Of a stretch of 64,000 nucleotides of DNA, positions 5,363 through 17,661 are shown piece after piece. The translations under genes and the position numbers were made by a program. The notes under the pieces are model-generated. The model did no database searches. It saw only the letters and a list, made by a program, of their open reading frames with translations, and was not told the DNA's origin. This stretch comes from Candidatus Moraniibacteriota bacterium (GTDB taxonomy: Bacteria > Patescibacteriota > Minisyncoccia > Moranbacterales > UBA11712), in contig JAUXSN010000039.1 in NCBI GenBank assembly GCA_030679895.1, positions 34,128 through 98,127 of the forward strand, given 5' to 3'. Every line of letters begins with the position of its first letter. Within the stretch, counting starts at the first letter, position 1.

Positions 5363-5390
5363 GCTTCCCAACATCCGATGTTGGGAAGCG
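5363..5390. terminator. Perfect palindromic hairpin (cgcttcccaacatc|cgatgttgggaagcg) immediately after gene 4341-5336
   Basis: A 13-bp inverted repeat sits 27 nt after the stop codon. Its stem sequence CCCAAC..GTTGGG is related to the dispersed REP-like palindromes. Confidence 0.5.
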
Positions 5391-5841: not shown

Positions 5842-6408
5842 ATGAAAAATATAATCAAAAGTCTGGTGATTGTCTTCGCCGTCGCGGCGGTGGCAAGCGT
5901 TGCGACTTATGCTTACTTTTCAAGTCAAGCAACGGTAACAGGCAATACTTATTCTACTGGAACGCTAGAAATTAGAGTAAATGGGCAGCCTTCAATAGCT
6001 GGATTTACTGCATCAAATATGGCGCCTGGCGATTGTAAAGCAGGAGAATTTACAGTAATGAATTATGGAGCGCCTTGGTTTGGTGGCCCAAGCACATTAA
6101 CCGCTGAAGAGCTTGTTATAAGCACCAATAATTTTGGTGGCGATACGAGTGGTTTATGTAATGCGCTAACAGCTGAAATTCAGAACTGTGCAGGGCCATG
6201 CGAAACCGCATATGCTACCGGACCAGTAAACGCTGTAAGTGAGGAAGATCTGCTAATGTCATGGTTTTCAAGTGGATTGGCTGCTGGAAATTCTGAAATT
6301 ATAAAATACGATGTGTGCTTGCCAGATACAGGTTCTGCTCAAGATTCATTACAGGGCAAAACTTGTACATTTGACTTTGTAGTTGACGCATACAACCCAA
6401 AAAGATAA
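5842..6408 (+). CDS. TasA/camelysin-like secreted fibre subunit with SipW-cognate-type signal peptide
   Basis: The N-terminus MKNIIKSLVIVFAVAAVASVATYAYFSSQATVTGNTYSTGTLEI fits the A.F.D....N.F..GTL pattern of TasA/CalY signal regions. An AGGTG-like RBS lies upstream. A paralog is at 6505 and a SipW peptidase at 7178. Confidence 0.65.
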   Translation: MKNIIKSLVIVFAVAAVASVATYAYFSSQATVTGNTYSTGTLEIRVNGQPSIAGFTASNMAPGDCKAGEFTVMNYGAPWFGGPSTLTAEELVISTNNFGGDTSGLCNALTAEIQNCAGPCETAYATGPVNAVSEEDLLMSWFSSGLAAGNSEIIKYDVCLPDTGSAQDSLQGKTCTFDFVVDAYNPKR

Positions 6409-6421
6409 TCCAATCTCTTTT

Positions 6422-6447
6422 CTCTCCGCGTGGCAGGGAACGGAGAG
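6422..6447 (+). terminator. Hairpin between the two TasA-like paralogs (ctctccg..cggagag)
   Basis: A 7-bp stem with a 12-nt loop sits 14 nt after the stop and upstream of the RBS (aaggaggtg) of the next gene. This placement suggests a partial terminator or attenuator. Confidence 0.35.
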
Positions 6448-6504
6448 ATGAGAGCGAGGATTTTGAAGCTCGCGAAACAAAAATAAAAGAAAGGAGGTGA
6501 AAAA

Positions 6505-7113
6505 ATGAAAAATATAATTCGAAGCTTGGTAGTTGTCTTTGCCGTTGCGGCGATTGCCGGAAGCGCGACATATGCGCTTTATCACGCGGAAGGCACAGTT
6601 TCTGGCGTAACCGCTTCAGCCAGCGATATGGATCTGAAGATAGATTCAAATCCGGATCCGAGTGGGTATAATTGGTCGGATGGCTTTGCCGTCACCAACG
6701 CGCAACTTGAAGCGCTGGGGCTTGACAGCTTGAAGCCGGGCAGTCATGGCCAGCAGATATTCGACATCAAAAATGTTGCAGGCGATGTTGATGGCGCTGC
6801 CTCAATAAAGTTGCATAGGACGTCTGCATGGAGCGATCTTGTGAACAACCTAAGGTTCACTGTATATTTCGATCCTGATAACAACGGAGCCTTTGGATCA
6901 GCTCTTGTGTCAGGCACTCTGGGTGAATTCGAGGGCAATACTTATACTCTCGGTCAGATCGTAGGTACTGCAACCCAAGAAAATACAGGTGGCGTTTTGG
7001 GAAAAAATGCTAGTGTCAAAATAGAATGGGACATTCCGAGTACTGCCGGAAACGAGATAATGGGAGACAGCGTCACATTTGACATCACTTTTGGTCTTGA
7101 TCAGACTCCATAA
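6505..7113 (+). CDS. TasA/camelysin-like secreted fibre subunit (paralog)
   Basis: MKNIIRSLVVVFAVAAIAGSATYALYHAEGTVSG is near-identical to the signal region of 5842. A strong RBS (aaaggaggtg) lies upstream. Confidence 0.65.
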   Translation: MKNIIRSLVVVFAVAAIAGSATYALYHAEGTVSGVTASASDMDLKIDSNPDPSGYNWSDGFAVTNAQLEALGLDSLKPGSHGQQIFDIKNVAGDVDGAASIKLHRTSAWSDLVNNLRFTVYFDPDNNGAFGSALVSGTLGEFEGNTYTLGQIVGTATQENTGGVLGKNASVKIEWDIPSTAGNEIMGDSVTFDITFGLDQTP

Positions 7114-7177
7114 TTCCCTTTCAGATCACATCTCTTGAAGGTGTGGTCGATAAAGGAAAATATTATCAAATTAATCC

Positions 7178-7783
7178 ATGAAATCAATCGGAAAAATATT
7201 CAAGTATGCCGTAAATACGATCTTGGTCTTGCTGGTTCTTCTCGGCGTGTTTGTCGTGTTCTCCTTTGTTCCTTTTCCGGGGAATTACAAGGTTTTCACG
7301 GTTATGTCGGGGTCAATGGAGCCGACGATCAAGACGGGGAGTTTGATTTTCGTGAAGCCGATGGCGGATTATGGCGTTGGAGACATCGTGACGAGGCGGA
7401 CGACCGATGCCAAAGTGACGATCACGCACAGAATTGTTTCCAAGGAAGAAATTCAGGGGAAAATTGCATTTGAAACGAAAGGCGACGCGAACGACGCGCC
7501 GGACGGGGAAAAATTCACGGCCGAGGGAATTGTCGGAAAATCAATCTTGAAAATTCCGTGGCTGGGGTATCCGGTGGGATACGCGAAGACCACGCCTGGA
7601 TTGATATTGCTGATAGTGATTCCGGCGGTGATCATCATCTATGACGAGATGAACAAGATAAAAGATGAGATCAAGAAGAAGTTCAGATATCGAAAAGCGG
7701 TTGCCGCAAGAAATGATAACAAAAATAGTGAAGATGTGATCGAGGAAATTAAAAAGGAAGAGACACCCCGTAAAATCATTTAA
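7178..7783 (+). CDS. sipW: Signal peptidase I, SipW/archaeal type (S26)
   Basis: An N-terminal TM segment is followed by the MSGSMEPT motif containing the catalytic Ser (S26 box B) and a C-terminal TM. The gene sits between the TasA-like genes and a large SipW-cognate protein. Confidence 0.75.
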   Translation: MKSIGKIFKYAVNTILVLLVLLGVFVVFSFVPFPGNYKVFTVMSGSMEPTIKTGSLIFVKPMADYGVGDIVTRRTTDAKVTITHRIVSKEEIQGKIAFETKGDANDAPDGEKFTAEGIVGKSILKIPWLGYPVGYAKTTPGLILLIVIPAVIIIYDEMNKIKDEIKKKFRYRKAVAARNDNKNSEDVIEEIKKEETPRKII

Positions 7784-7788
7784 ATCAG

Positions 7789-9795
7789 ATGAAGCGAATA
7801 ATCAGAAAAAAATTCAGGAGGTTCTGGAGGTCGGTGATCAACAGGCGATTAGTAAAGTACGCCTCTCGTTTCGGTCTGGCCGTTTTCCTGCTGGCAATGG
7901 TTTTGAGTTTTGGAAAAATCCAGGGGACAAATTCTTTTTTCATGGACACGGCGACTGTGGCAGGAAATGAGATTTCAGCCGGATATTGGATTCCGGTTTT
8001 GACGATGACCGTTTCGCCAAAAAATCCCGATGGGCAGAACAATTTTTATGTTTCTCATCCCTGCGTGACACTTGAAGCGAAATTGGGAGGCTCTGTCGCG
8101 TCGCTTTCGGAAGTGGATATATTTTATGAATTCTCGAACGACGGCAATCCGGTTTCGGGCGGAACGAAATACGACGGAACCTGTGTTTCGATTCCCGACG
8201 GAAACCCGACTTATTTTCAGGCGATTGCCGTGAACAAATTGAATTCCGACTGGAAAAGCAATGTCGTGAATGATCAGTTCAAGGTTGACACGCAATGTCC
8301 GGTTGTTGAAATCACAAATCCTGACAGCGGTGACGATTTGAGCGGTTCGGTTGAAATCCGCGGCACTGTGACGGACGCCAATCCGCACCACTACTGGCTG
8401 GTGATCGAAAATTCATCCGGCGCGAAAGTCGCGGGTCCGGGAACGGTGAACGATGCGAATTCTTTCACGGACAAGAAATTTTTCGACTGGGACACGACGG
8501 CGGTTCTGGACGGAGATTATAAAATAAAGCTCGAAGCGCGCGACGCCGCGGGAAACAAATGCCCGAATCAGGCGCCGGTTCTTGCCGATCCGAATGATCC
8601 AAACGATTCAGTTGATTGGATTGATGTGACTGTGGCCAACACGCCGGTTGTTTCTGCCGGTGATGTGATCATCAATGAAGTGATGTGGATGGGAAGCTTT
8701 GCGCATCCACATGATGAATGGATTGAACTCAAGAATACAACCGGACATCCGATAAACGTGAAAAATTGGAATATCGAGGGAGCAGTTGAAGGAAGCGGCG
8801 GGCATCTCGAAATTGCCGGAAACACGGGACACGAAGGCGACGACATGATCATCCCCGCGCACGGATACTTTCTTATTGCAAACTATAACCGAGATTCATC
8901 GGATATAAATGTTGATGTGGATTTGGTGAAAACTAGTATAAGCCTCAATGATGAATATGACGACAACGGCCCGTTGGTTTTGAAAGATACTTCAGATCAA
9001 ACGATTGACGCGACTGCGGCGCCGACAGGACACAGTTGGCCGGCGGGCATTCATGGACTTGTCGTTCCCGGCGGGATATTGCATTGGTCAATGGAAAGAA
9101 ACAACACTCCGTCAAGCGGCTGGCACACCTGCGATCCTACGGCGATGACGCCAGCCCAATTTCTAACGATGAAAAGCTATTGGGATTGGGACGCCTTATT
9201 GTTCAACTGCGGCACGCCGGGGCATGCCAATCTTTCCAAAAACGATCCTTCCAAAAGTGACATTGAAGAATATTTCAATAAAAGTGAAATAAAAGAGGAT
9301 GTGGTTTTGGAGCCGCTTGAGAAAAGTGGAAATGATGGTGTTGAAGCGTTGAAAATAACGAAAAAAGTCCCGATAAAAGTTGTTGGCGCGCCGGATGTTG
9401 CGGAGGGCTTGAAATACAAAATCGACCAGCGGATAAAAAAAGTCAATCTTTCCGGAGATTTTCCGGACAAGGAAATAATCGTAGATTTAGCCAAACTGGG
9501 ACTCATTGAAAAAACCGGCGAGATCAAAATCAGGATCAGCGACCTCGATTTACCGGATGGTGTGGAAGTCGTTTCGCAGAAAGACAACGGGCTGGTGCTT
9601 TTGATTACGGTTGAAAAGCAAAAAGACAAGGTTGCGAAAGTCGCGAAGAAAAACAATAAGTCCGGAAAAAAGTCGAAGAAAAAAGGAAAAGCCGAGCTGA
9701 AACAGGCGGAGCAGGCCGCTCTTCCCGATAGTGGAAAAGAAAGCGGGAGCGGAGACGGCGATCCGAATAACAATAATAAAAATCCCATTACATGA
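7789..9795 (+). CDS. Large secreted protein with SipW-cognate-like signal region and a lamin-tail domain (LTD)
   Basis: An N-terminal TM is followed by GTNSFFMDTATVAGNEISAGYW, which resembles the TasA signal pattern. VIINEVMWMGS...DEWIELKNTTGHPINVKNWNIEG matches the LTD signature. The C-terminus is lysine-rich. Confidence 0.55.
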   Translation: MKRIIRKKFRRFWRSVINRRLVKYASRFGLAVFLLAMVLSFGKIQGTNSFFMDTATVAGNEISAGYWIPVLTMTVSPKNPDGQNNFYVSHPCVTLEAKLGGSVASLSEVDIFYEFSNDGNPVSGGTKYDGTCVSIPDGNPTYFQAIAVNKLNSDWKSNVVNDQFKVDTQCPVVEITNPDSGDDLSGSVEIRGTVTDANPHHYWLVIENSSGAKVAGPGTVNDANSFTDKKFFDWDTTAVLDGDYKIKLEARDAAGNKCPNQAPVLADPNDPNDSVDWIDVTVANTPVVSAGDVIINEVMWMGSFAHPHDEWIELKNTTGHPINVKNWNIEGAVEGSGGHLEIAGNTGHEGDDMIIPAHGYFLIANYNRDSSDINVDVDLVKTSISLNDEYDDNGPLVLKDTSDQTIDATAAPTGHSWPAGIHGLVVPGGILHWSMERNNTPSSGWHTCDPTAMTPAQFLTMKSYWDWDALLFNCGTPGHANLSKNDPSKSDIEEYFNKSEIKEDVVLEPLEKSGNDGVEALKITKKVPIKVVGAPDVAEGLKYKIDQRIKKVNLSGDFPDKEIIVDLAKLGLIEKTGEIKIRISDLDLPDGVEVVSQKDNGLVLLITVEKQKDKVAKVAKKNNKSGKKSKKKGKAELKQAEQAALPDSGKESGSGDGDPNNNNKNPIT

Positions 9796-10871
9796 AAATG
9801 CTTTCAGAAAAAAAATTTGAAAATAGATTTTATATTTTTGGGCTCGCTATCTTGTTTTGTGGGTTGATGTTTTTCAGTTTTTCTGAAAAAGCCGAAGCAA
9901 AAACCGTGACTGACGGAAATCTTGCCATAACTTATAGCGATCCTTTGTTTGCAGTTACGAACGCGGTGCCGGGACAAACCTATTTTTCAGATATGACAGT
10001 GGAAAATTTGGGCGGAGCGGACAGAAAATTCCAATTTGAACTGAATATTGCGGCGAGTTCCAGCAATCTGACGGAAAGGCTTTTTCTCAAAATATACAGC
10101 CTTGACGAAATCGGCAAGGAATATTGCGAATACGGCTGCTTGGCAAACGAGGACATTAAGAGTCTTGACGGAGGCGAATTTGAAATAAAGACAATGCCTG
10201 GAAATTCCACGAAAAATTTCCGCTTCGCGCTGGCTTTTGATCCCGACGCGGGAAATGATTTTCAGAACGTGAGCGCCGGGTTTGATATGAAAATAGGATT
10301 TGAGGATGAATTTCAGGGAGTTACTGGCGGCGGAGGGGGAGGCAATGGAGCTACCGCGGCCGGAACAGCTCCGACGGGATTTTTGACATCGCTGTTTTCT
10401 GCCGTTTCCACGGGGACGACAGCCGGAGCAGAAACAGAAGGAGAAATGCCGCAAGGGCAGGAAGGCGAAGTTAAAGGTGAAGAAACAACGCCGGGACAAG
10501 TCGAGGGTATTTCAGTGTCATCCTGCCAAAGTTGGCCGAAATGGATTTGGGTTTTGATGCTGATTGCTTATTTCGCCGCGTTTTTGTGGCGGACATTTTC
10601 GAATTTATCGGGGCAGATTGAGAAGCGCGAAATGAGATGGGGATGGCAGGCAATTTTGGCAGGCGTGGCGTTTCTTGTCTGGTATTTCTTTGACAAGTGC
10701 CGTGAGTTTCAATGGTTTGTGATCATCGCTCTTGTCGGCGGCGCAGTGGTTTATCTTTTTTATCTTTATTTGTTCAGGAATAATATTCGCGAAGAGCACG
10801 CGGATATAGAAAGCGGATCCGGCCAAGAACCGCCGGAAAATCCAACTGATCAGGCGTCGCCGATTGTATAG
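9792..10871 (+). CDS. Membrane-anchored TasA-like beta-sandwich protein (possible fibre anchor)
   Basis: The start overlaps the upstream stop (ATGA). A signal-like N-terminus is followed by AVTNAVPGQTYFSDMTVENLG (TasA-body-like), a Gly-rich linker and three C-terminal TM helices. Confidence 0.45.
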   Translation: MKMLSEKKFENRFYIFGLAILFCGLMFFSFSEKAEAKTVTDGNLAITYSDPLFAVTNAVPGQTYFSDMTVENLGGADRKFQFELNIAASSSNLTERLFLKIYSLDEIGKEYCEYGCLANEDIKSLDGGEFEIKTMPGNSTKNFRFALAFDPDAGNDFQNVSAGFDMKIGFEDEFQGVTGGGGGGNGATAAGTAPTGFLTSLFSAVSTGTTAGAETEGEMPQGQEGEVKGEETTPGQVEGISVSSCQSWPKWIWVLMLIAYFAAFLWRTFSNLSGQIEKREMRWGWQAILAGVAFLVWYFFDKCREFQWFVIIALVGGAVVYLFYLYLFRNNIREEHADIESGSGQEPPENPTDQASPIV

Positions 10872-10907: not shown

Positions 10908-10947
10908 CAAGAAAAACAACCCCGACGTTGCATCGGGGTTGTTTTTT
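10908..10947. repeat. Repeat family C copy 1: caagaaaaacaacccc-N-ggggttgttttt terminator hairpin
   Basis: A long GC stem is followed by a T-run. The conserved flanks are shared with copies at 12627-12660 (degenerate), 14688-14734 and 15710-15749. Confidence 0.7.
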
Positions 10948-11099
10948 GTTAACCTTGTAAAAAATCCCCACCAGGGGCGGGGATTAGTTTAGAGGATTGG
11001 GAATTCTGTGATATATTTGGATTAGCAATGGCAATGATTTGATGCTATAGTTAAATCTGCCTTGTATTTAAGGCTAAACTCTAGCGAGAATGCAATTCT

Positions 11100-12590
11100 A
11101 TGAATGATGATTTGAATATTTTTTTAGCAAAATTTGATATATCGGAGAAGGACTTTGAATCCACAAATTTGAAGTGGGAAGATCTGCAATCCATAAAAGA
11201 AGATTATAAAAAAATCAAAAAAGAATTATATCTTATCGCCAGGTATATAGAGGAAAAATTGCACACTTTGGACATAGTGCATTCAGTCAGATATAGGATA
11301 AAAGACTCCGAACATCTTTTAGCCAAGATCATAAGAAAGAAAATTGAGGATCCGCATCGCGAGATCACGATCCGCAACTATAAATCTTCGATAACGGATC
11401 TAATCGGGATAAGAGCCATTCATCTGTTCAAGGAAGACTGGGTGTTTATTCATAAATTCATAGAGGAAAATTGGGATTTGAACGAGCAACCACTTGCTTA
11501 TATTAGGGAAGGAGACGCAGCTCCTTGTGTCGAGGAATACGAAAAGTATAAATGCAATATCGAATTGCATCCCCATGGCTATAGGTCGGTTCATTACCTG
11601 ATCCGCTCATGTCCCGGCAAGGATCCCTATATTGCTGAAATACAAGTCAGAACTATTTTTGAAGAAGGATGGAGCGAAATAGATCATACGATAAAATATC
11701 CCAGTAACATCGTTAATCCTCTATTGAATAAATTTCTTGATACATTCAATGTGCTGGCCGGGAATTCTGATCAGATGGGATCTTTTGTGAGGCGCTTGAA
11801 AGATGATTTGCTGAAAGGCACAGAAAAGATTGAAGAGTATGAAAAATTGACCGAAAAGAATACGGAAATAATCAATGATCTGCAGAAAAGAATCGCGGGA
11901 ACCATTGGCGAACTCAATTCCAAGATCCGAAATGCCGAATCAAAAATAAATGCTTTGACCTCTCGCGGAATTGCCGCGGAACCATTCAAGAATATTCTCA
12001 GCGAAGTGAGGGTCAAAGCTTCCAGATTTGAGCTAATGATGGCCGCCAATCCTCATGAAGCGGCAAATCTTCTCGAATCAGCCGAACAAAAACTGGAACG
12101 ATTGGAAAAGTTGCTCGAGATGACTATCGAAGAAGATAATCATGCAAATAATACTGATGATAATAGCGAAGAAGAAGCCGGTTCTTATAAAAATAATGTC
12201 AATCGCTTCATTCATAACTTGAAAACCATAGCGGAGCTGGAGGGAAGCATTGCGCCCAAAACGCTAACGAATGTGGAGGGGCAGGCTGATTCAGGGGCAA
12301 AAATTGAAAACGCAGTCAATGAGATCAGCAGTAGAAGCGGATTTGCAAAATTTCTTATCGGGCCAAAATATAAAGGCATCAAATCTTTGAATGTTGAGAT
12401 AGTTGCCAATCAAGCAAGAATCAAGACTCTGACTGACGCAGCGAATTCGATAACTGATCCTGCCGTGAAGTTTGTTCTGCAGAAGCAAATTGGTCTGTTC
12501 ACTCGCGAGAACAATAAGCTGCGGGCGTTTGTTGCCAAAAGAAAGCGAAGCGCAAGTTTGTTCGGGTGGGCGGCCAAGCTATTTAATTAA
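11100..12590 (+). CDS. RelA/SpoT-domain nucleotide pyrophosphokinase (small alarmone synthetase / toxSAS-like) with ~270-aa C-terminal coiled-coil extension
   Basis: The synthetase-domain motifs are intact: HSVRYRIKDSEHLLAKIIRK, ITDLIGIRAIHLF (Asp retained), HGYRSVHYL and AEIQVRTIFEEGW (catalytic Glu retained). The C-terminal half has heptad-like K/E-rich repeats. Confidence 0.7.
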   Translation: MNDDLNIFLAKFDISEKDFESTNLKWEDLQSIKEDYKKIKKELYLIARYIEEKLHTLDIVHSVRYRIKDSEHLLAKIIRKKIEDPHREITIRNYKSSITDLIGIRAIHLFKEDWVFIHKFIEENWDLNEQPLAYIREGDAAPCVEEYEKYKCNIELHPHGYRSVHYLIRSCPGKDPYIAEIQVRTIFEEGWSEIDHTIKYPSNIVNPLLNKFLDTFNVLAGNSDQMGSFVRRLKDDLLKGTEKIEEYEKLTEKNTEIINDLQKRIAGTIGELNSKIRNAESKINALTSRGIAAEPFKNILSEVRVKASRFELMMAANPHEAANLLESAEQKLERLEKLLEMTIEEDNHANNTDDNSEEEAGSYKNNVNRFIHNLKTIAELEGSIAPKTLTNVEGQADSGAKIENAVNEISSRSGFAKFLIGPKYKGIKSLNVEIVANQARIKTLTDAANSITDPAVKFVLQKQIGLFTRENNKLRAFVAKRKRSASLFGWAAKLFN

Positions 12591-12592
12591 AG

Positions 12593-12622
12593 TTTCGCCA
12601 AGGTCGAACCTTGGCGGGAAAT
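12593..12622. repeat. Repeat family A copy 1: tttcgccaaggtcgaaccttggcgggaaat hairpin directly after a stop codon
   Basis: The stem is 8 bp (cgccaagg/ccttggcg). Copies at 14555-14584 and 17401-17431 carry a compensatory base change that preserves pairing. Confidence 0.7.
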
Positions 12623-12733
12623 CGAAACAACTCTGTCACTCGCGCGATGGGGTTGTTTTTTCATTTCCAAAAATTAAAATATCTTGAAGATAAAAATTTG
12701 CTTTTGCATAATAGAATATAGGCTTGTATCCCG

Positions 12734-12754
12734 CCCCAACATTCAATGTTGGGG
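12734..12754. repeat. REP-like palindrome ccccaacattcaatgttgggg
   Basis: A 10-bp inverted repeat belonging to the same family as the CCTAACATT(C/G)AATGTTAGGG copies at 15760 and 63808. Confidence 0.7.
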
Positions 12755-12826
12755 TAATGAACTCTGGGAATTCACCTGCCAAGTTATCCACAGTATGCAA
12801 TTTAGACAGGACAAGCGAAAAGGAGT

Positions 12827-14551
12827 ATGATACATACAGCGATAAAAATTAAAAATAAAAGCATGAAAAAAACAGCAATGTTTGCGCTTGCGTTTGTTTT
12901 TCTCCTTGGGACAACAGGCGTAATCGCAAAAAACAACGGAGACGGCAAGAATTTTCACAAGCCTCTCCAAGTGAACAAGGAGAAAGTGAAGCATTTTGCA
13001 AAGAAACCGATTTCTAACAGCGACCGGAAAAGAGGGGATTTGCTCGAGGAGATGATAATCAAGGAAAAACCCGCCAACGTTAAACCGGCACCCACCGATC
13101 CCACTTCCGGAGGAGTGACCGGAAATCTGGGTGACCAAATGGAACCTGGCGAAGGCAAAAAATATGCCATCGTGATCGGGCTTGCCAACTATCCCGGGAC
13201 GAGCATAGTCGAAAGCGACGAGATCCTCCCTGATTTGTGCGTATCGCCAATCGCGGAAAATGACGCTTCGGTATATGAAGGGACGAACGAAGTAAAAGCC
13301 AACTGCAAAGACGGTGACAGCGTGAATATGGAAAAGACTTTGATCGAAAAATACGGCTTCGCGCCGAGCAATGTTTTTCGCTTGAGCGATTCAGAAGCCA
13401 CATTTTCTGCAATCGAAGAAAAAATAATGTACTTAGTCGGAGGAATAGATAGCAAGGAATTTAATCACACAGGAATTTTGAAACCGGAAGACGAATTAGT
13501 ATTCTTTTTCAGCGGTCATGGAGCTTTGAGTGAGGATGATAGTATTGATGGGGACATTGACGAAAATGACGATGGAGGCATTGTTGTCTATGACGAAGAG
13601 TATAGTGATGATTCATACATGAGCACAGATCCTGCGTCTACGTACGCAGCAGACTATAACAAAAATGGCTATAGTGACAGTGCCTACATCTGGGACGGCC
13701 AATTGCGAGCGTGGTTTGCGAACGCTGCCACTGACCGGATTTTCTTCGCCTTTGACACCTGCCGCGCGGAAGAAATGGATGATTTGGTATGGACGGATAT
13801 CTATAGGACCACAAAGGAACCAGACCGCGTTCTCGCTTTCTCCAGCGGGAAAGAAGAAAGTTCCTATACCTACTATCTCGGTGGGGCCAATAATAGTGGC
13901 AATATTCACGACAGCGAAGGCCTATTCTCGCACTATTTCGTTTTGCGGGCGATGTATGACGGATATGCGGACGGATTCAATCCCATCAATAAACGGAGCA
14001 AGGATCCTCTCAAATACGACGGCAAGGTGGCAGTGGAAGAAGCTTTCAGCTATGCCTATCCGCTGGTGAGAGAAGCGTCAAGCAATAACCAAACGCCGCA
14101 TCTCGATGATCTTTTCACAAATGACCTTCTGTTGGGAACGCCGCCGGAATTGGTGAAAACTGTGTATGTTTACGCAAACAATAGCGAAGAAACAGCACCT
14201 TATACTTTGAAGAGCGGCGTGAAATATCTTCTGGAAGCAAGCAAAGTTGCCGCAGCCGACGAAACTAACACGATTCGTTTTGACGCCAAATATTCAACCA
14301 ATACCACGACTGGTCTTTGGACAGATCTGGTTGATCAATCTTATGCGGACGCTACAATCTATCCAACGCTTTTGGAATTGTTTATGAACGACGCATCTGT
14401 CGATTGGGGAGAATACAACGACGAACATAAGTACAGAAAGGAAGTGACTGGCAGCGACTCTTTGCTCCCCTCCGTGAACTTCAAAATCAACGACACTGAT
14501 TATTCTGACAACAGCGAAGAGTTGCTAGTTAAAATTTATCAATTAGACTAA
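12827..14551 (+). CDS. Secreted clan-CD cysteine peptidase (caspase/metacaspase-like, C14)
   Basis: A signal peptide (MKKTAMFALAFVFLLGTTGVIA) is followed by KKYAIVIGLANYP, FFFSGHG (catalytic His) and FAFDTCRAE (catalytic Cys), which are typical of Peptidase_C14. The start may instead be the internal Met at 12863. Confidence 0.6.
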   Translation: MIHTAIKIKNKSMKKTAMFALAFVFLLGTTGVIAKNNGDGKNFHKPLQVNKEKVKHFAKKPISNSDRKRGDLLEEMIIKEKPANVKPAPTDPTSGGVTGNLGDQMEPGEGKKYAIVIGLANYPGTSIVESDEILPDLCVSPIAENDASVYEGTNEVKANCKDGDSVNMEKTLIEKYGFAPSNVFRLSDSEATFSAIEEKIMYLVGGIDSKEFNHTGILKPEDELVFFFSGHGALSEDDSIDGDIDENDDGGIVVYDEEYSDDSYMSTDPASTYAADYNKNGYSDSAYIWDGQLRAWFANAATDRIFFAFDTCRAEEMDDLVWTDIYRTTKEPDRVLAFSSGKEESSYTYYLGGANNSGNIHDSEGLFSHYFVLRAMYDGYADGFNPINKRSKDPLKYDGKVAVEEAFSYAYPLVREASSNNQTPHLDDLFTNDLLLGTPPELVKTVYVYANNSEETAPYTLKSGVKYLLEASKVAAADETNTIRFDAKYSTNTTTGLWTDLVDQSYADATIYPTLLELFMNDASVDWGEYNDEHKYRKEVTGSDSLLPSVNFKINDTDYSDNSEELLVKIYQLD

Positions 14552-14554
14552 CGC

Positions 14555-14584
14555 TTCGCTAAGGTTCGACCTTAGCGGGAAAAT
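14555..14584. repeat. Repeat family A copy 2 (cttcgctaaggttcgaccttagcgggaaaat)
   Basis: Lies 4 nt after the stop of 12827-14551. The stem cgctaagg/ccttagcg covaries with copy 1. Confidence 0.7.
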
Positions 14585-14664
14585 AGCCGAAAGAGTTCCG
14601 ACATGGGGTCGGGACTCTTTTTCTACTTGGAAACTCGGTTTCCAAGTAAATCGTCCTTGATTTT

Positions 14665-14683
14665 CCTAAAGTTAAGCTTTAGG
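14665..14683. repeat. REP-like palindrome cctaaagttaagctttagg
   Basis: CCTAA..TTAGG arms surround a 9-nt loop. The same family occurs at 39538/39561 with the loop in both orientations. Confidence 0.7.
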
Positions 14684-14687
14684 AATT

Positions 14688-14734
14688 CAAGAAAAACAAC
14701 CCCTTTGCTCGCGAGCAGAGGGGCTGTTTTTGTT
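14688..14734. repeat. Repeat family C copy 3 (caagaaaaacaacccctttgctcgcgagcagaggggctgtttttgtt)
   Basis: The flanks are conserved, the middle varies with compensatory changes, and a T-run follows. A TATAAT-like -10 box lies about 15 nt downstream. Confidence 0.7.
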
Positions 14735-14779
14735 ACCCGCTATTTATGATATAATATAAAAAAAATCGAATAATAAACT

Positions 14780-15478
14780 ATGTCCGATGACAATCAAAAG
14801 ATAATTGAAGAAGCTGAAGCGTTTATCAAAGAGCACAAGAAAAGTCTGATTGCTCGCTTTGCTGATCCGGAAAAGTATCATTCAGTTGAACATCCGATTT
14901 CGCTTTTTATGGCTGGCTCCCCAGGCGCTGGCAAGACCGAAGTTTCCAAGCGGCTCATTGAGCAGTTCGCTGACAACGCTCCTGTAAGAATTGATGCGGA
15001 TGATATCCGCGAAATGTTTCCGAGCTACACTGGCGTCAATTCGCATATTTTCCAGCGCGCCTGCACGACAGGCGTCAATAAGCTATTCGATTATGTTTTG
15101 GATCACAAGCTCAATGTCATCCTGGATGGAACTTTCGCCTATGAGCGGGCGATGGAAAATATCGAGCGGTCTTTGAAGCGCGATCGGCGCGTTATCATCT
15201 ATTATCTTTTTCAGGATCCGGTCATCGCTTGGAAATTCACCAAAATTCGCGAGGAAACCGAGGGTCGCCGGGTTTCAAAAGAAGTTTTTATTTGCTCTTT
15301 TCTCCGTGCTCGTGAAAATGTAAATGAGGCCAAAGCGCATTTTGGCGAAAAAATTGAATTAAACATGATTATCAAGGATTTCACCAACAATTTCGAGAAA
15401 GTTTTTTCGAATATTGGGAGTATTGATAAATATCTGCCAAGGGTGTATACTAAAAACGAACTTGAAAAAATATTATGA
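14780..15478 (+). CDS. Zeta-toxin family P-loop kinase
   Basis: The Walker A motif MAGSPGAGKT, the RIDADDIRE region and DGTF match the Zeta_toxin (UNAG kinase) fold. The protein is 232 aa long. Confidence 0.7.
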   Translation: MSDDNQKIIEEAEAFIKEHKKSLIARFADPEKYHSVEHPISLFMAGSPGAGKTEVSKRLIEQFADNAPVRIDADDIREMFPSYTGVNSHIFQRACTTGVNKLFDYVLDHKLNVILDGTFAYERAMENIERSLKRDRRVIIYYLFQDPVIAWKFTKIREETEGRRVSKEVFICSFLRARENVNEAKAHFGEKIELNMIIKDFTNNFEKVFSNIGSIDKYLPRVYTKNELEKIL

Positions 15479-15660
15479 TCAAGAAAATAAAAAGCTATTT
15501 TTGCCCCAAACGCGAAGAGAAAAAGGATTTTTCTTCTTTTTTTAACCGTGCCTCAGAAGCGGAAAAGCGAAAATTGATGGAAGATGTCGCCCGAAAAGCC
15601 AACGAAGATCAGCGGAATTTGATCGAGCGATACGAACGAACCAACCACAAAATCGCCTAA
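15475..15660 (+). CDS. Small K/E-rich protein translationally coupled to the zeta-toxin gene (candidate antitoxin/partner)
   Basis: The ATG overlaps the zeta stop (ATGA). The product is a 61-aa charged, predicted helical protein with no homology I can recognise. Confidence 0.35.
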   Translation: MIKKIKSYFCPKREEKKDFSSFFNRASEAEKRKLMEDVARKANEDQRNLIERYERTNHKIA

Positions 15661-15685
15661 GATATTCTTTTTGACATTAATTTTT

Positions 15686-15705
15686 CCTAAGTATTTAGCT
15701 CTAGG
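15686..15705. repeat. REP-like imperfect palindrome cctaagtatttagctctagg
   Basis: CCTAAG..CTAGG arms; directly abuts family-C copy 4. Confidence 0.5.
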
Positions 15706-15709
15706 AATC

Positions 15710-15749
15710 CAAGAAAAACAGCCCCGCCTCACCGGCGGGTTGTTTTTTT
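15710..15749. repeat. Repeat family C copy 4 (caagaaaaacagccccgcctcaccggcgggttgttttttt)
   Basis: Conserved flanks and a T-run. Confidence 0.7.
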
Positions 15750-15759
15750 ATTAACCCAT

Positions 15760-15779
15760 CCTAACATTCAATGTTAGGG
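15760..15779. repeat. REP palindrome cctaacattcaatgttaggg (plus adjacent half-copy aatgttagggtg)
   Basis: A perfect 9-bp inverted repeat with near-identical copies at 63808-63827 and 12734-12754. Confidence 0.75.
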
Positions 15780-15877
15780 TAAATAATGTTAGGGTGAATA
15801 GGTGAAAATCTTGATATTTTGGCTCGGACGTGCTATCAAGTGTCTATCAAACCTATGCCGGGGAGGGCAAATTCATT

Positions 15878-16621
15878 ATGAAAGTAAAGGCGGTTTTGGC
15901 CGGATTCTTCGTGATTTGCGGCTTATTGTTCTTTAACAAGCCCGTAATGGCGGGTTATCAACTCAATAAAGGCCAGCTGGAGCGGGAAATCAGCGCGGCT
16001 GGGCTGCGGCTTATCGGCGAAACTGATTATTATGGCGTTCCGTGCCTTGAGGTGGAGCTTCCGCTTGACGAAGCGATTTTTCAGATCTGCCGGAAAGTTC
16101 CGACGCTGAACGCGTTCTATCTTGAAACGCGGGAAGCGATCGCCATTATGAATGGCCTCAATCCTTTTTATCCGCGGAGCCAGCGAGGCCGTCAGTTCGA
16201 TACGGTCAGAAAAACCATCCTGATTCCGCTGGATACGACCATCCAGCCCAAGCTTTTTCCTTCATCCAACGGGAACTTCGCGTCATACGCCCAGGCTATT
16301 TTTGTGGACCGGGAGAAACAAGCGCTGGCTTATTATGAACACGGCCAATTGGTTGCCTGCTTTCCCGTTTCCACGGGCCGTTCCGGAAAGGGAACTCCAG
16401 CCATGCAAGGCTGGATAAAGCTCAAGGACGAGGACCATATTTCTTCAATCTATGACGTCCTTATGCCGTTTTCACTATTACTGGCAAGCCCCTATTTTGT
16501 TCACGCAGGCGTAATGCCGGGGATGCCGGATTCAGCCGGATGCATTAGGATGTTCACGGAGCATGCCAGATGGCTTTTTGACCGAATTGAAAGCCGGAAA
16601 ACGCGGTTCAAAGTGGCTTGA
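15878..16621 (+). CDS. L,D-transpeptidase (YkuD-domain) protein, secreted
   Basis: VSTGRSGKGTP, HAG and SAGCIRM (catalytic Cys) are present. The start was moved to MKVKAVLAGFF (signal peptide), which follows GGAGGG. Confidence 0.65.
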   Translation: MKVKAVLAGFFVICGLLFFNKPVMAGYQLNKGQLEREISAAGLRLIGETDYYGVPCLEVELPLDEAIFQICRKVPTLNAFYLETREAIAIMNGLNPFYPRSQRGRQFDTVRKTILIPLDTTIQPKLFPSSNGNFASYAQAIFVDREKQALAYYEHGQLVACFPVSTGRSGKGTPAMQGWIKLKDEDHISSIYDVLMPFSLLLASPYFVHAGVMPGMPDSAGCIRMFTEHARWLFDRIESRKTRFKVA

Positions 16622-16655
16622 GAACAAAATCTCAATTTTGATCCGGAGGAAACAT

Positions 16656-17399
16656 ATGAAAGCAAGACTGATGATTTTTTTGTTCGCTGTCATCGCAGTA
16701 GCGCTTCCGGCCACCAACTCGCTGGCCGATTACCAACTTGACCCGAACCGGCTCCGGGCGGAACTGGCCGCGGCGGGCATCAAAGCGGGGAAACTGGGGA
16801 AAATCAGCAACATTCCCTATTTGGAAGTAGCCTTTCCAGACGGGAAAAGCGTTGACGATCTCTGCGAGATAATTTCCTCGCTCAAGGAAAATATGCCCGA
16901 GACGCGGTTGGTCATCGCCATTTCCAACCGGCTTCATCCTGATCTTATCCGGGGAAAGGAAGGCGAGCCTTTTACCACCGAACTCCGGTGGCTGAAGGTC
17001 GTTCTGGACACGAAGGTCAAGTCCAAAAATATCTTTCCCGAGTTTGACGAAAAACTGGCCGGGAAAGAGAGTCATTTCATCATTGACTTGTCGAAGCAGG
17101 TTATGACCCTCTATGAATTCGGGCAGATGACGCTCTTTCTTCCTGTGTCAACCGGAAAACCGGGCCGGGAAACGCCCAAAATCAGCGGGGTGGTTCAGGG
17201 AAAGGCCGCGGATCTCTGGATCGAAAAGTATCAGGTCGCGATGTCCTGGGTGGTGAAGCTTTCTCCAACAATATGCGTTTACGGCGGGCTGATGGACGGG
17301 ATGTTCACCACTGCCGGCAGCGTCAAGACCTACCCCAGCGAAGCGGAAAAGCTTTTCCGTCTGGCGAAGGTGGGCGTAACCAGCTTTGAAGTCCGCTAG
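16656..17399 (+). CDS. L,D-transpeptidase-like paralog with Cys-to-Ser substitution at the catalytic position
   Basis: GGAGG lies 6 nt before ATG 16656. The N-termini align with the paralog (DYQLDPNRLRAELAAAGI versus GYQLNKGQLEREISAAGL). VSTGKPGRETP is conserved, but the SAGCIRM position reads TAGSVKT. Confidence 0.55.
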   Translation: MKARLMIFLFAVIAVALPATNSLADYQLDPNRLRAELAAAGIKAGKLGKISNIPYLEVAFPDGKSVDDLCEIISSLKENMPETRLVIAISNRLHPDLIRGKEGEPFTTELRWLKVVLDTKVKSKNIFPEFDEKLAGKESHFIIDLSKQVMTLYEFGQMTLFLPVSTGKPGRETPKISGVVQGKAADLWIEKYQVAMSWVVKLSPTICVYGGLMDGMFTTAGSVKTYPSEAEKLFRLAKVGVTSFEVR

Positions 17400-17400
17400 A

Positions 17401-17431
17401 TTTCGCCAAGGTCGAATCTTAGCGGGAAAAT
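17401..17431. repeat. Repeat family A copy 3 (tttcgccaaggtcgaatcttagcgggaaaat)
   Basis: Lies 2 nt after the stop of 16656-17399 and has the same 30-nt consensus as copies 1 and 2. Confidence 0.7.
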
Positions 17432-17486
17432 AAAAAAACTATCAGGGAGGTGCGGATCGTTGAAGGACGAATGCCATCCATGTTGC

Positions 17487-17518
17487 GGGGGAAGCCGAGT
17501 CTTCCCCTGTTTTTTTTT
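17487..17518 (+). terminator. Rho-independent terminator (ggggaagccgagtcttcccc + T9)
   Basis: A 7-bp GC stem with a 6-nt loop is followed by nine T residues. Confidence 0.6.
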
Positions 17519-17661
17519 AGCAGCTCGTTTTTCGGCGGGCTGTTTTTTTGTTCTTTAATTTAGGGAGGGAAAAATATTGTTTATTTTATTTTCGCGTGCT
17601 ATTATATTTTCGTTATAAATATTGCAAAAATATTTGAAAGTTGCCGTATTTATGCTAAGAT

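Follow-up and report, generated by a model that had tools for sequence, protein, structure and literature searches.

A predicted small alarmone synthetase of Patescibacteria fused to a helical module of secreted envelope proteins

The window analysed here is a stretch of 64,000 nucleotides from Candidatus Moraniibacteriota bacterium (assembly GCA_030679895.1, contig JAUXSN010000039.1, positions 34,128 to 98,127), and it contains, at 11100-12590 on the forward strand, a gene for a protein of 496 amino acids (aa). By its motifs, fold and profile matches, this protein belongs to the small alarmone synthetase (SAS) class of the RelA/SpoT homologue (RSH) superfamily and is not a RelQ/RelP equivalog. 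Its first 265 residues represent a widespread, sporadic and mobile SAS subfamily of solo genes with hypervariable C-terminal tails. The tail of the protein itself, aa 266-496, is by homology a helical module captured, minus the signal peptide, from a family of secreted envelope proteins of Patescibacteria, the candidate phyla radiation (CPR). With about even confidence, the protein is read here as an accessory, conditionally active cytoplasmic small alarmone synthetase with a regulatory or targeting tail, which would serve growth control in stress or defence. No description of an SAS combined with a secreted-envelope module was found in a literature search, in keeping with an earlier sequence-only reading of this DNA, which held a coiled-coil C-terminal partner to be undescribed.

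The list of open reading frames (ORFs) contains a 496-aa frame, from ATG to stop, that occupies exactly 11100..12590 (+), so that the gene is real and had been correctly delimited. Its parts are as follows.

11100..12590, + strand: whole gene of the RSH-family small alarmone synthetase, 496 codons and a stop; dN/dS ~0.15 against four orthologues.
11100..11717, + strand: SYNTH (RelA_SpoT) catalytic domain, aa 1-206, from Pfam, invariant columns, and RelP/RelQ fold and profile matches.
11289-11303, + strand: motif R64/R66/K68.
11397-11414, + strand: motif D100..R105.
11577-11594, + strand: motif G160-Y-R-S-V-H165.
11637-11654, + strand: motif E180-I-Q-V-R-T185.
11718..11894, + strand: subfamily-conserved stalk, aa 207-265, the start of an 82-residue helix (LDTFNVLAGNSDQMGSFVRRLKDDLLKG...), common to relatives of 330-400 aa in other phyla.
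11895..12182, + strand: helical hairpin (…KLERLEKLLE…) plus acidic linker, aa 266-361; profile positions 4-228 match secreted proteins P0121-P0126 and others.
12183..12587, + strand: helical module of ~135 aa, aa 362-496 (SYKNNVNRFIHNL … FLIGPKYK … SLFGWAAKLFN); module hidden Markov model (HMM) E 1.9e-51.
12555..12587, + strand: C-terminal motif S-L-F-G-W-x-x-K-L-F, aa 486-496, a short amphipathic hydrophobic helix.

The HMM search that had been proposed as a check places RelA_SpoT (PF04607) on aa 66-203, scoring 67.8 bits where the gathering cutoff is 27 (E 1.3e-18). The RSH/SAS class motifs RxK, DxxGxR, GYRS-H (with the G-loop Tyr) and EIQxRT are all present. Among 17 full-length orthologues, R64/R66/K68, D100-x-x-G103-x-R105 (ITDLIGIR), G160-Y-R-S163 and H165 are invariant, as are E180-I-Q-x-R-T185 (AEIQVRT), W191, H196 and Y200. 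All of the listed catalytic and substrate motif columns are also invariant across 80 members of the subfamily, which bears out the earlier claim of an intact synthetase site. HD, TGS and ACT domains are absent from the 496-aa protein, as had likewise been claimed, both by Pfam (E<=0.01) and in the AlphaFold2 model, which consists of the SYNTH core followed by helices.

The full-length AlphaFold2 model, built on an 80-sequence alignment, has a mean predicted local distance difference test score (pLDDT) of 85.7 and consists of an alpha/beta SYNTH core at aa 1-~200, then solely of helices over aa 207-495, one of which is 82 residues long (207-288). In a Foldseek search of the PDB, structures of RelP and RelQ head the list (E 3e-9 to 1e-5, target-normalised TM-score up to 0.77), followed by SaEAS (8vx3; E 3.6e-4), and then FaRel2 (E 1.4e-3) and Rel(Seq). 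The subfamily sequence profile against the PDB finds RelP (E 9.5e-13) and RelQ, with no further RSH structure at E<=1, and a search with the N-terminal 267 aa at E<=10 has the same outcome. The closest solved relatives are RelP (YwaC/SAS2) and RelQ (YjbM/SAS1) of Bacillota (PDB 6fgj, 6ewz, 6fgk, 5dec and 2be3), which share with the protein a single SYNTH domain, the same catalytic motifs and a net acidic catalytic module. However, identity to the aligned structures is ~19-20%, the protein has ~290 additional helical C-terminal residues and it belongs to a separate, mobile, multi-phylum subfamily. The NCBIfam RelQ equivalog model GTPPhKinYjbM gives it 31.1 bits against a cutoff of 320.

The predicted enzyme is most likely an ATP:nucleotide 3'-pyrophosphokinase, with (p)ppGpp and/or (p)ppApp as products. 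The net charge of SYNTH aa 1-206 is -7 and the subfamily median is -4, figures that are net charges only and a crude proxy for the surface. RelP and RelQ are described as acidic in the region where the tRNA-targeting FaRel2 has its basic, tRNA-binding cluster close about the active site (10.1101/2021.04.30.441581). Since the SYNTH module is net acidic as well, we infer a nucleotide, not a tRNA, as the substrate.

The sequence-only reading had described the C-terminus as a long, K/E-rich, heptad-like coiled coil. Its helical nature is upheld by AlphaFold2, whereas a generic coiled coil is not: aa 207-265 belong to the conserved core of the subfamily, and aa 266-496, when modelled alone, form a compact helical bundle (predicted TM-score, pTM, 0.79) with helices at 268-288, 294-316 and 318-351. 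This tail carries the conserved motifs LIGPKYK and SLFGW. A profile of aa 266-496, searched against 1.84 billion cluster representatives (clusters at 50% identity, the unit of all counts of tail relatives given here), finds 1,717 proteins at E<=1e-3, of which 957 reach E<=1e-10. Most of these are 200-260 aa long, with a C-terminal match to profile positions ~80-229 (query aa ~345-496), and alignment with secreted members puts the start of the module at ~aa 362. Relatives of 310-476 aa match the whole profile; the unit at aa 266-361 is homologous in these longer secreted Patescibacteria proteins and is there sometimes doubled. In one relative of 1,052 aa (P0137), LVIVD beta-propeller repeats stand ahead of the module.

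The secreted relatives begin with a Sec-type signal peptide, behind which lies a spacer that is acidic or of low complexity. In 132 of the 149 best representatives, the N-terminus has a hydrophobic or signal segment, and most of the others are fragments. The named secreted members come from metagenome-assembled genomes (MAGs) of Wolfebacteria, Moranbacteria, Paceibacteria and the 'Patescibacteria group'. Two of them bear the UniRef label 'DUF5667 domain-containing protein', while the copy of Pfam-A searched has zero matches for the query tail or for its secreted relatives. The proteins P0121-P0381 have one architecture, in which a signal peptide and an acidic spacer precede a helical module of ~135 aa that ends in FSLFGWFVKLFNK, and it extends over more than 1,700 clusters.

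The alignment between the query and the secreted members is unambiguous, pairing SYKNNVNRFIHNL with EHRSAVATFVQSLL, FLIGPKYK with FLIGTDYK, and SLFGWAAKLFN with FSLFGWFVKLFNK; its columns S221, G224 and W225 are invariant, and the module HMM gives the window ORF 169.9 bits. The secreted 'DUF5667' proteins (among them OGM89350.1 / UniRef A0A1F8DL66, and PIZ45073.1) are homologous over their last ~135 aa, or ~230 aa in longer members (E to 1e-64), and have the FLIGxxYK and FSLFGWxVKLF motifs in common with the query. Unlike the query, they lack an enzyme domain and start with a Sec signal peptide and a low-complexity, acidic spacer, the place of which is taken in the query by a cytoplasmic enzyme. 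The query shows neither a signal peptide nor a transmembrane segment (the maximum Kyte-Doolittle 15-residue window is 0.28 in the first 45 aa), and its N-terminal residues belong to the conserved SYNTH module. A second copy of the module or of the RSH gene is absent from the window and from the flanks of the orthologues.

The terminal SLFGW...KLF helix is a candidate element for contact with a membrane or a partner. Its 11 residues have a hydrophobic moment of 0.45-0.49 and a mean hydrophobicity of 0.4-0.5, comparable, as a lead only, to the values computed for stretches of MinD and FtsA that we take to be their membrane-targeting sequences. The helix at 487-495 has low pLDDT in the full-length model. 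The SLFGW motif is kept in 29 of the 33 full-length clusters. Orthologues that end early, with …FVAKESGV or …RLSPKMSIV and without SLFGW, are found at L011 6001-7446 and L012 5968-7329 and as P0015, P0019 and P0033; they could result from frameshifts or errors of sequencing, or be naturally occurring forms that lack the putative anchor.

A module that is otherwise nearly exclusive to proteins with signal peptides could point to an exported alarmone synthetase or effector, in which the module sends the enzyme to the surface of the cell, or into the cell of a host or competitor, as compared with the exported alarmone synthetases (EAS) and Tas1/Apk1. CPR bacteria are often episymbionts, and an HlyD/ABC/MacB transporter cluster lies downstream of the gene in the window and in the syntenic locus L001. 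Exported alarmone synthetases are an established group (SaEAS, VpEAS and AaEAS, with Apk1/Tas1), and they carry N-terminal Sec signals or secretion-system domains (PMC12691689). The protein resembles them in joining an SAS domain to a module from the world of secretion and envelope, with SaEAS among its fold matches. It differs from them in that its envelope-derived module is C-terminal and an N-terminal export determinant, whether signal peptide or known export domain, is absent; thus, by the features tested, it is not an EAS. In addition, the Sec signal of the secreted relatives accounts for their export, so the module need not be an export signal, and no immunity-gene candidate is conserved near the 82 subfamily loci compared. 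Export of the enzyme is therefore considered very unlikely.

Selection has acted on the whole fusion. Nei-Gojobori estimates for the query against four orthologues give a dN/dS of ~0.15 overall, with 0.07-0.18 for SYNTH, 0.06-0.08 for the stalk helix (the lowest), 0.14-0.19 for aa 289-361 and 0.19-0.37 for the module. Because purifying selection is seen in every region, the fusion is taken to be functional in all its parts. Positive selection on the tail had been suspected because nucleotide and protein identities are similar, and it was rejected on these estimates, which are purifying everywhere. The same data bear on whether the gene is an assembly chimera or a decaying pseudogene. A database chimera does involve the module, and a few orthologues are truncated at the C-terminus. 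However, the frame is intact, the models of the full-length protein and of the tail are confident, and the same architecture is shared by 33 clusters (90% identity) that are independent and stem from several sources, so that an artefact is effectively refuted. The chimera in question, P0267 (265 aa), has a 2-hydroxyacid-dehydrogenase-like N-terminus joined to the secreted module at a 'GRIGQEIRVIAQ' junction (a GIGQE-like motif); it is probably an assembly chimera formed at a shared short motif, and calls for caution in the mining of architectures.

Full-length proteins are rare, and the catalytic module is not. A search of 5.8 billion proteins yields 33 full-length clusters at 90% identity, which are 52-92% identical to the query and come entirely from CPR MAGs or metagenomes. 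Thousands of proteins of 300-440 aa align just to aa ~1-265, at 42-56% identity, and BLAST alignments of relatives stop at ~aa 265. A scan of 185,579 GTDB species representatives finds at least 470 loci of the SYNTH module in many phyla, counts that are lower bounds because the scan used two exact peptide patterns. The carriers include Bacteroidota, Ignavibacteriota, Gemmatimonadota, Acidobacteriota, Planctomycetota, Spirochaetota and other Patescibacteria, as well as Bacillota (Paenibacillus, Cohnella, Lentibacillus and Clostridium), Myxococcus xanthus, Vibrio splendidus, Idiomarina and Colwellia. The whole query is covered in 3 of the best 80 GTDB loci (Parcubacteria, Nealsonbacteria and Yonathbacteria).

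Beyond ~aa 265, the tails of the subfamily are mutually unrelated and comprise low-complexity 'LPDFSNIK' repeats with K-rich ends, Cys4 zinc-ribbon-like tails and helical tails. Of 80 tails sorted by class, two CxxC pairs occur in 11, a K/R-rich composition in 13 and the CPR module in 4, and the other 52 are of different kinds. Tails of the Cys4 (two CxxC) or K-rich 'LPDFSNIK' type occur at loci L028, L031-L034, L037, L058, L061, L066-L068 and L082. Around 82 subfamily loci, clustering of the two nearest genes on each side in the manner of FlaGs gave no conserved neighbour, since no family recurs past 3-4 closely related genomes, and a conserved antitoxin partner was rejected on this result. 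Individual contexts vary: L007 has an Xre-type helix-turn-helix gene upstream, L006 an LmuB_C gene and a group II intron reverse transcriptase nearby, L004 YafQ/ParE-like genes nearby, and L008 nothing notable.

The mobility of the subfamily is seen in its presence on 112 plasmid records and in two or three phage genomes, among them Ralstonia phage YO102_1 (H1) and Vibrio phage 10N.286.54.E11_PE002B (L091). The module corresponds to phrog_2211 (E 2.7e-59), a family annotated without function. One plasmid member is the following.

L090 4980-6029: WP_001176696.1 of plasmid pXO1 (B. anthracis Sterne), same SAS subfamily.

This protein of B. anthracis adjoins xerS and is 45% identical to the query over aa 8-233. 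Like phrog_2211, it is of the same SYNTH-plus-stalk subfamily and a solo gene; unlike the query, it has 349 aa with an unrelated short tail, and a plasmid or phage location. In a literature search, neither the pXO1 protein nor the subfamily turned up as the subject of a paper.

Given this distribution, the sequence-only reading of the gene as toxSAS-like, with CapRel as its model, can be weighed. The genes of toxSAS enzymes (FaRel, FaRel2, PhRel, PhRel2 and unfused CapRel) stand together with an antitoxin gene in a conserved arrangement of two or three cistrons (PMC7229694). As the 82 loci show no conserved neighbour, the gene is not a bicistronic toxSAS by the features tested. CapRel(SJ46) is a fused toxSAS toxin-antitoxin and phage capsid sensor, in which a variable C-terminal domain restrains the enzyme and senses the trigger (PMC9712102). 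Its antitoxin domain is zinc-finger-like (the pseudo-zinc-finger domain, pseudo-ZFD), with a three-stranded beta-sheet and a YXXY motif that enters the ATP site (PMC9712102). On the same model, the protein of the window would be a toxin that pyrophosphorylates the CCA ends of tRNA or depletes ATP via ppApp, and its tail would be a cis-antitoxin held on the active site and freed by a phage protein, leading to abortive infection.

The likeness to CapRel(SJ46) lies in the arrangement of an N-terminal SYNTH effector and a homologue-variable, noncatalytic C-terminus in one polypeptide, without a separate antitoxin gene, in a family tied to mobile elements and associated with phages. Some tails of the subfamily are Cys4 zinc ribbons (as compared with PMC9712102), which are reminiscent of the zinc-finger-like antitoxin domain of CapRel. 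Defence or toxin-antitoxin genes also lie near some relatives (those named above for L006 and L004), and a zeta-toxin gene lies in the window. However, the tail of the protein is a bundle of alpha-helices alone and has its homologues among secreted envelope proteins. No pseudo-ZFD beta-sheet is present in the models of the tail and no YXXY in its sequence, the sole YxxY being at aa 147 within SYNTH, so that by the features tested the protein is not a fused CapRel. Specific affinity in sequence or fold was not detected either: no CapRel chain is among the phmmer or profile matches at E<=10, nor among the top 50 Foldseek matches listed, and no prophage context is seen. Further points against this account are the acidic SYNTH module, given which the substrate class probably differs from that of CapRel, the want of a PADLOC match or a confident closed conformation, a module that is not diversifying, and the strain-specific insertion that brought the zeta and caspase-like neighbours. 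The CapRel-like account is improbable, both as regards the toxic activity and as regards the tail as cis-antitoxin. The likeness to toxSAS/CapRel is thus an analogy, and membership is not supported by the tests, in which RelP and RelQ come out closer. What survives of the earlier claim, as a plausible idea, is the logic of a fused sensor and effector, with which the mobile, sporadic, solo occurrence and hypervariable tails of the subfamily agree.

A quieter explanation is a SAS of housekeeping type, that is, a non-toxic (p)ppGpp synthetase like RelP/RelQ which provides basal or stress alarmone in these reduced genomes, is possibly the only RSH of the cell, and has a tail that oligomerises or tethers it. 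This account is in agreement with RelP and RelQ as the closest solved relatives, the acidic SYNTH charge, the purifying selection throughout and the lack of an antitoxin partner in the 82 loci. In addition, the CPR contigs that carry the gene are long and chromosomal (one of 172 kb, Ga0645779_00373 of 339 kb and Ga0130016_10000007 of 605 kb), and its position is conserved in the window, L001 and L010. Against it stand the score far below the RelQ equivalog cutoff and the sporadic occurrence of the subfamily in phyla that already have a long Rel, and on plasmids and phages. In L011 and L002, the RSH gene alone is alignable (86% and 78% nucleotide identity) and the flanks are not, so that flanking synteny is absent. 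The full-length form, at 3 of the best 80 GTDB loci and 33 clusters among 5.8 billion proteins, is too rare for a general housekeeping role in CPR. This explanation is rather unlikely. An accessory role is favoured over housekeeping in view of the rarity of the gene in CPR, its mobility elsewhere and its solo occurrence.

For the favoured accessory, conditionally active enzyme, the following course may be proposed. One lineage of Patescibacteria would have recruited ~230 aa from an abundant Sec-secreted envelope family, without the signal peptide. In the resulting fusion, the SYNTH domain would be the output and the C-terminal module a regulatory or targeting element that sets where and when the enzyme acts. 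This role is suggested for the tail because the catalytic module of the subfamily is constant and the tail varies, as in CapRel. The tail could act through self-association of its helical bundle or binding of a partner, together with contact of the terminal helix with the membrane, and the alarmone made would lead to conditional growth control in stress or defence and not to a core stringent response.

Several observations weigh against this account, in which the alarmone product and the conditional activation are proposals from sequence. The relative orientation of SYNTH and tail is of low confidence (pTM 0.56 for the full-length model), and since the tail is not confidently placed against SYNTH, no closed autoinhibited state can be claimed. 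PADLOC gives zero matches to the protein, for which it has no model. The module is somewhat less constrained than the rest yet not diversifying, whereas a sensor in an arms race would be expected to diversify. A few orthologues are without the terminal motif, and an ordinary chromosomal function would also explain why the position of the gene is conserved among the window, L001 and L010.

A further reading, which is distinctly improbable, is that the protein is an integrated decoy or homotypic sensor, being a cytoplasmic, enzyme-linked copy of a module that is normal only on abundant secreted envelope proteins. Its ligand, in the cytoplasm, could come from a phage, as a protein that has evolved to attach to the envelope protein (for instance a receptor-binding protein produced in the course of infection), or it could be unexported precursors of the secreted family, which would accumulate on failure of secretion. 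Binding of either through the helical bundle would switch on alarmone synthesis.

The signals that flank the gene are consistent with its expression on its own.

10912..10946, + strand: perfect hairpin with a 14-bp stem and a T run behind it, which terminates the gene upstream (stop at 10871) and bounds the RSH unit on its 5' side.
10988-11017, + strand: second promoter candidate, a consensus match only.
11022..11051, + strand: sigma-70-like promoter candidate TTAGCA-18-TATAGT with extended TG, 49 nt 5' of the ATG, a consensus match only.
12596..12659, + strand: palindrome CGCCAAGGTCGAACCTTGGCG (12596-12616) and, with its T run, a terminator-like hairpin (12624-12659), which close the unit on its 3' side.

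On these signals, the RSH gene is a monocistronic unit with its own promoter-like site and terminator. The upstream regions of orthologues are not conserved, yet each has its own -10-like box. A riboswitch or conserved leader upstream was considered and rejected, as the upstream region is not conserved and Rfam at E<=1 gives sub-threshold noise and a tRNA. The CGCCAAGGTCGAACCTTGGCG palindrome recurs at 12596, 14557 and 17404, each time 6 nt past a stop codon, and a second palindrome, CCCAACATTCAATGTTGGGG, is found between genes at 5367, 12735, 15760 and 63808, in two cases 70-90 nt 5' of the next gene. Both families recur far over chance (0 expected) and neither is conserved around the orthologues. 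They are read as generic terminators or as elements like repetitive extragenic palindromes (REP) because they recur near unrelated genes and are not conserved around orthologues, and on the same grounds their role as ends of a mobile element or cassette was rejected. In this genome, the two families could serve as operators, as terminators or as REP-like elements. Thus, of the isolated cassette between repeats that had been described earlier, the monocistronic gene stands, and the 'repeats' are terminator-like hairpins and palindromes of intergenic sites.

The window looks like a Patescibacteria (CPR) chromosome, with nearly all genes on one strand, two tRNAs, and best homologues (84-92% identity) in MAGs of Parcubacteria, Nealsonbacteria and Moranbacteria. 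Comparison at the DNA level yields a conserved backbone in the order signal peptidase, RSH, tRNA-Thr and HlyD/ABC/MacB cluster. The contexts of full-length orthologues all differ from each other. In the window, ~5 kb between the RSH gene and tRNA-Thr (12590-17645) hold a caspase-like gene, a zeta gene with a 61-aa ORF, and two proteins with YkuD L,D-transpeptidase domains. This block is missing from L001, where tRNA-Thr follows ~0.9 kb after the RSH gene. The adjacency of caspase-like and zeta genes, noted before, is therefore real and not conserved: the neighbourhood resembling a 'defence island' is strain-specific because it is absent from the syntenic L001, and it looks like an insertion at a tRNA-proximal variable site.

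Within this block, the gene at 12827-14551 (+) encodes 574 aa with a Sec-type signal peptide (MKKTAMFALAFVFLLGTTGVIA) and caspase-like His/Cys motifs (FFFSGHG and AFDTCRA). Database support for it is weak (PADLOC 'caspase' at 2e-4; no match to Pfam C14), and its product has the look of a secreted peptidase of clan CD, not of a defence caspase acting inside the cell. The gene at 14780-15478 (+) encodes a zeta-toxin/AAA_33 kinase (PF06414, 1e-37), and the 61-aa ORF at 15475-15660 (+) overlaps it by 4 nt. If the two are a toxin-antitoxin pair, the small partner lies downstream, opposite to the classical epsilon-zeta order.

Upstream of the RSH gene, the window contains genes for a camelysin/TasA-like protein, a SipW-like signal peptidase and a surface protein with a lamin-tail domain (LTD), at 5842-10871. 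The corresponding surface cluster of L001 (1-7904) is different, with an LTD protein, a SpaA-type pilin of 1,518 aa, a sortase and an Avd-like protein (bAvd/23S_rRNA_IVP match). This suggests that surface-appendage genes upstream of the RSH gene turn over rapidly between syntenic genomes.

If confirmed, these findings would define a large and apparently unstudied SAS subfamily of solo genes with a constant SYNTH-plus-stalk module and hypervariable tails, and a modular tail logic parallel to that of CapRel on a catalytic core like that of RelP/RelQ. Were the protein merely a RelQ-like enzyme with an oligomerisation tail, the interest would be modest and taxonomic. For Patescibacteria, the fusion would provide the first functional handle on a very abundant uncharacterised envelope module, found in more than 1,700 clusters at 50% identity. 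No paper on alarmone signalling or metabolism in CPR was found in a literature search, and an enzyme in which alarmone synthesis is tied to a surface-protein module would, if confirmed, be a concrete entry to this signalling. If the decoy reading were true, envelope attack or secretion stress would be coupled straight to growth arrest in these ultra-small bacteria.

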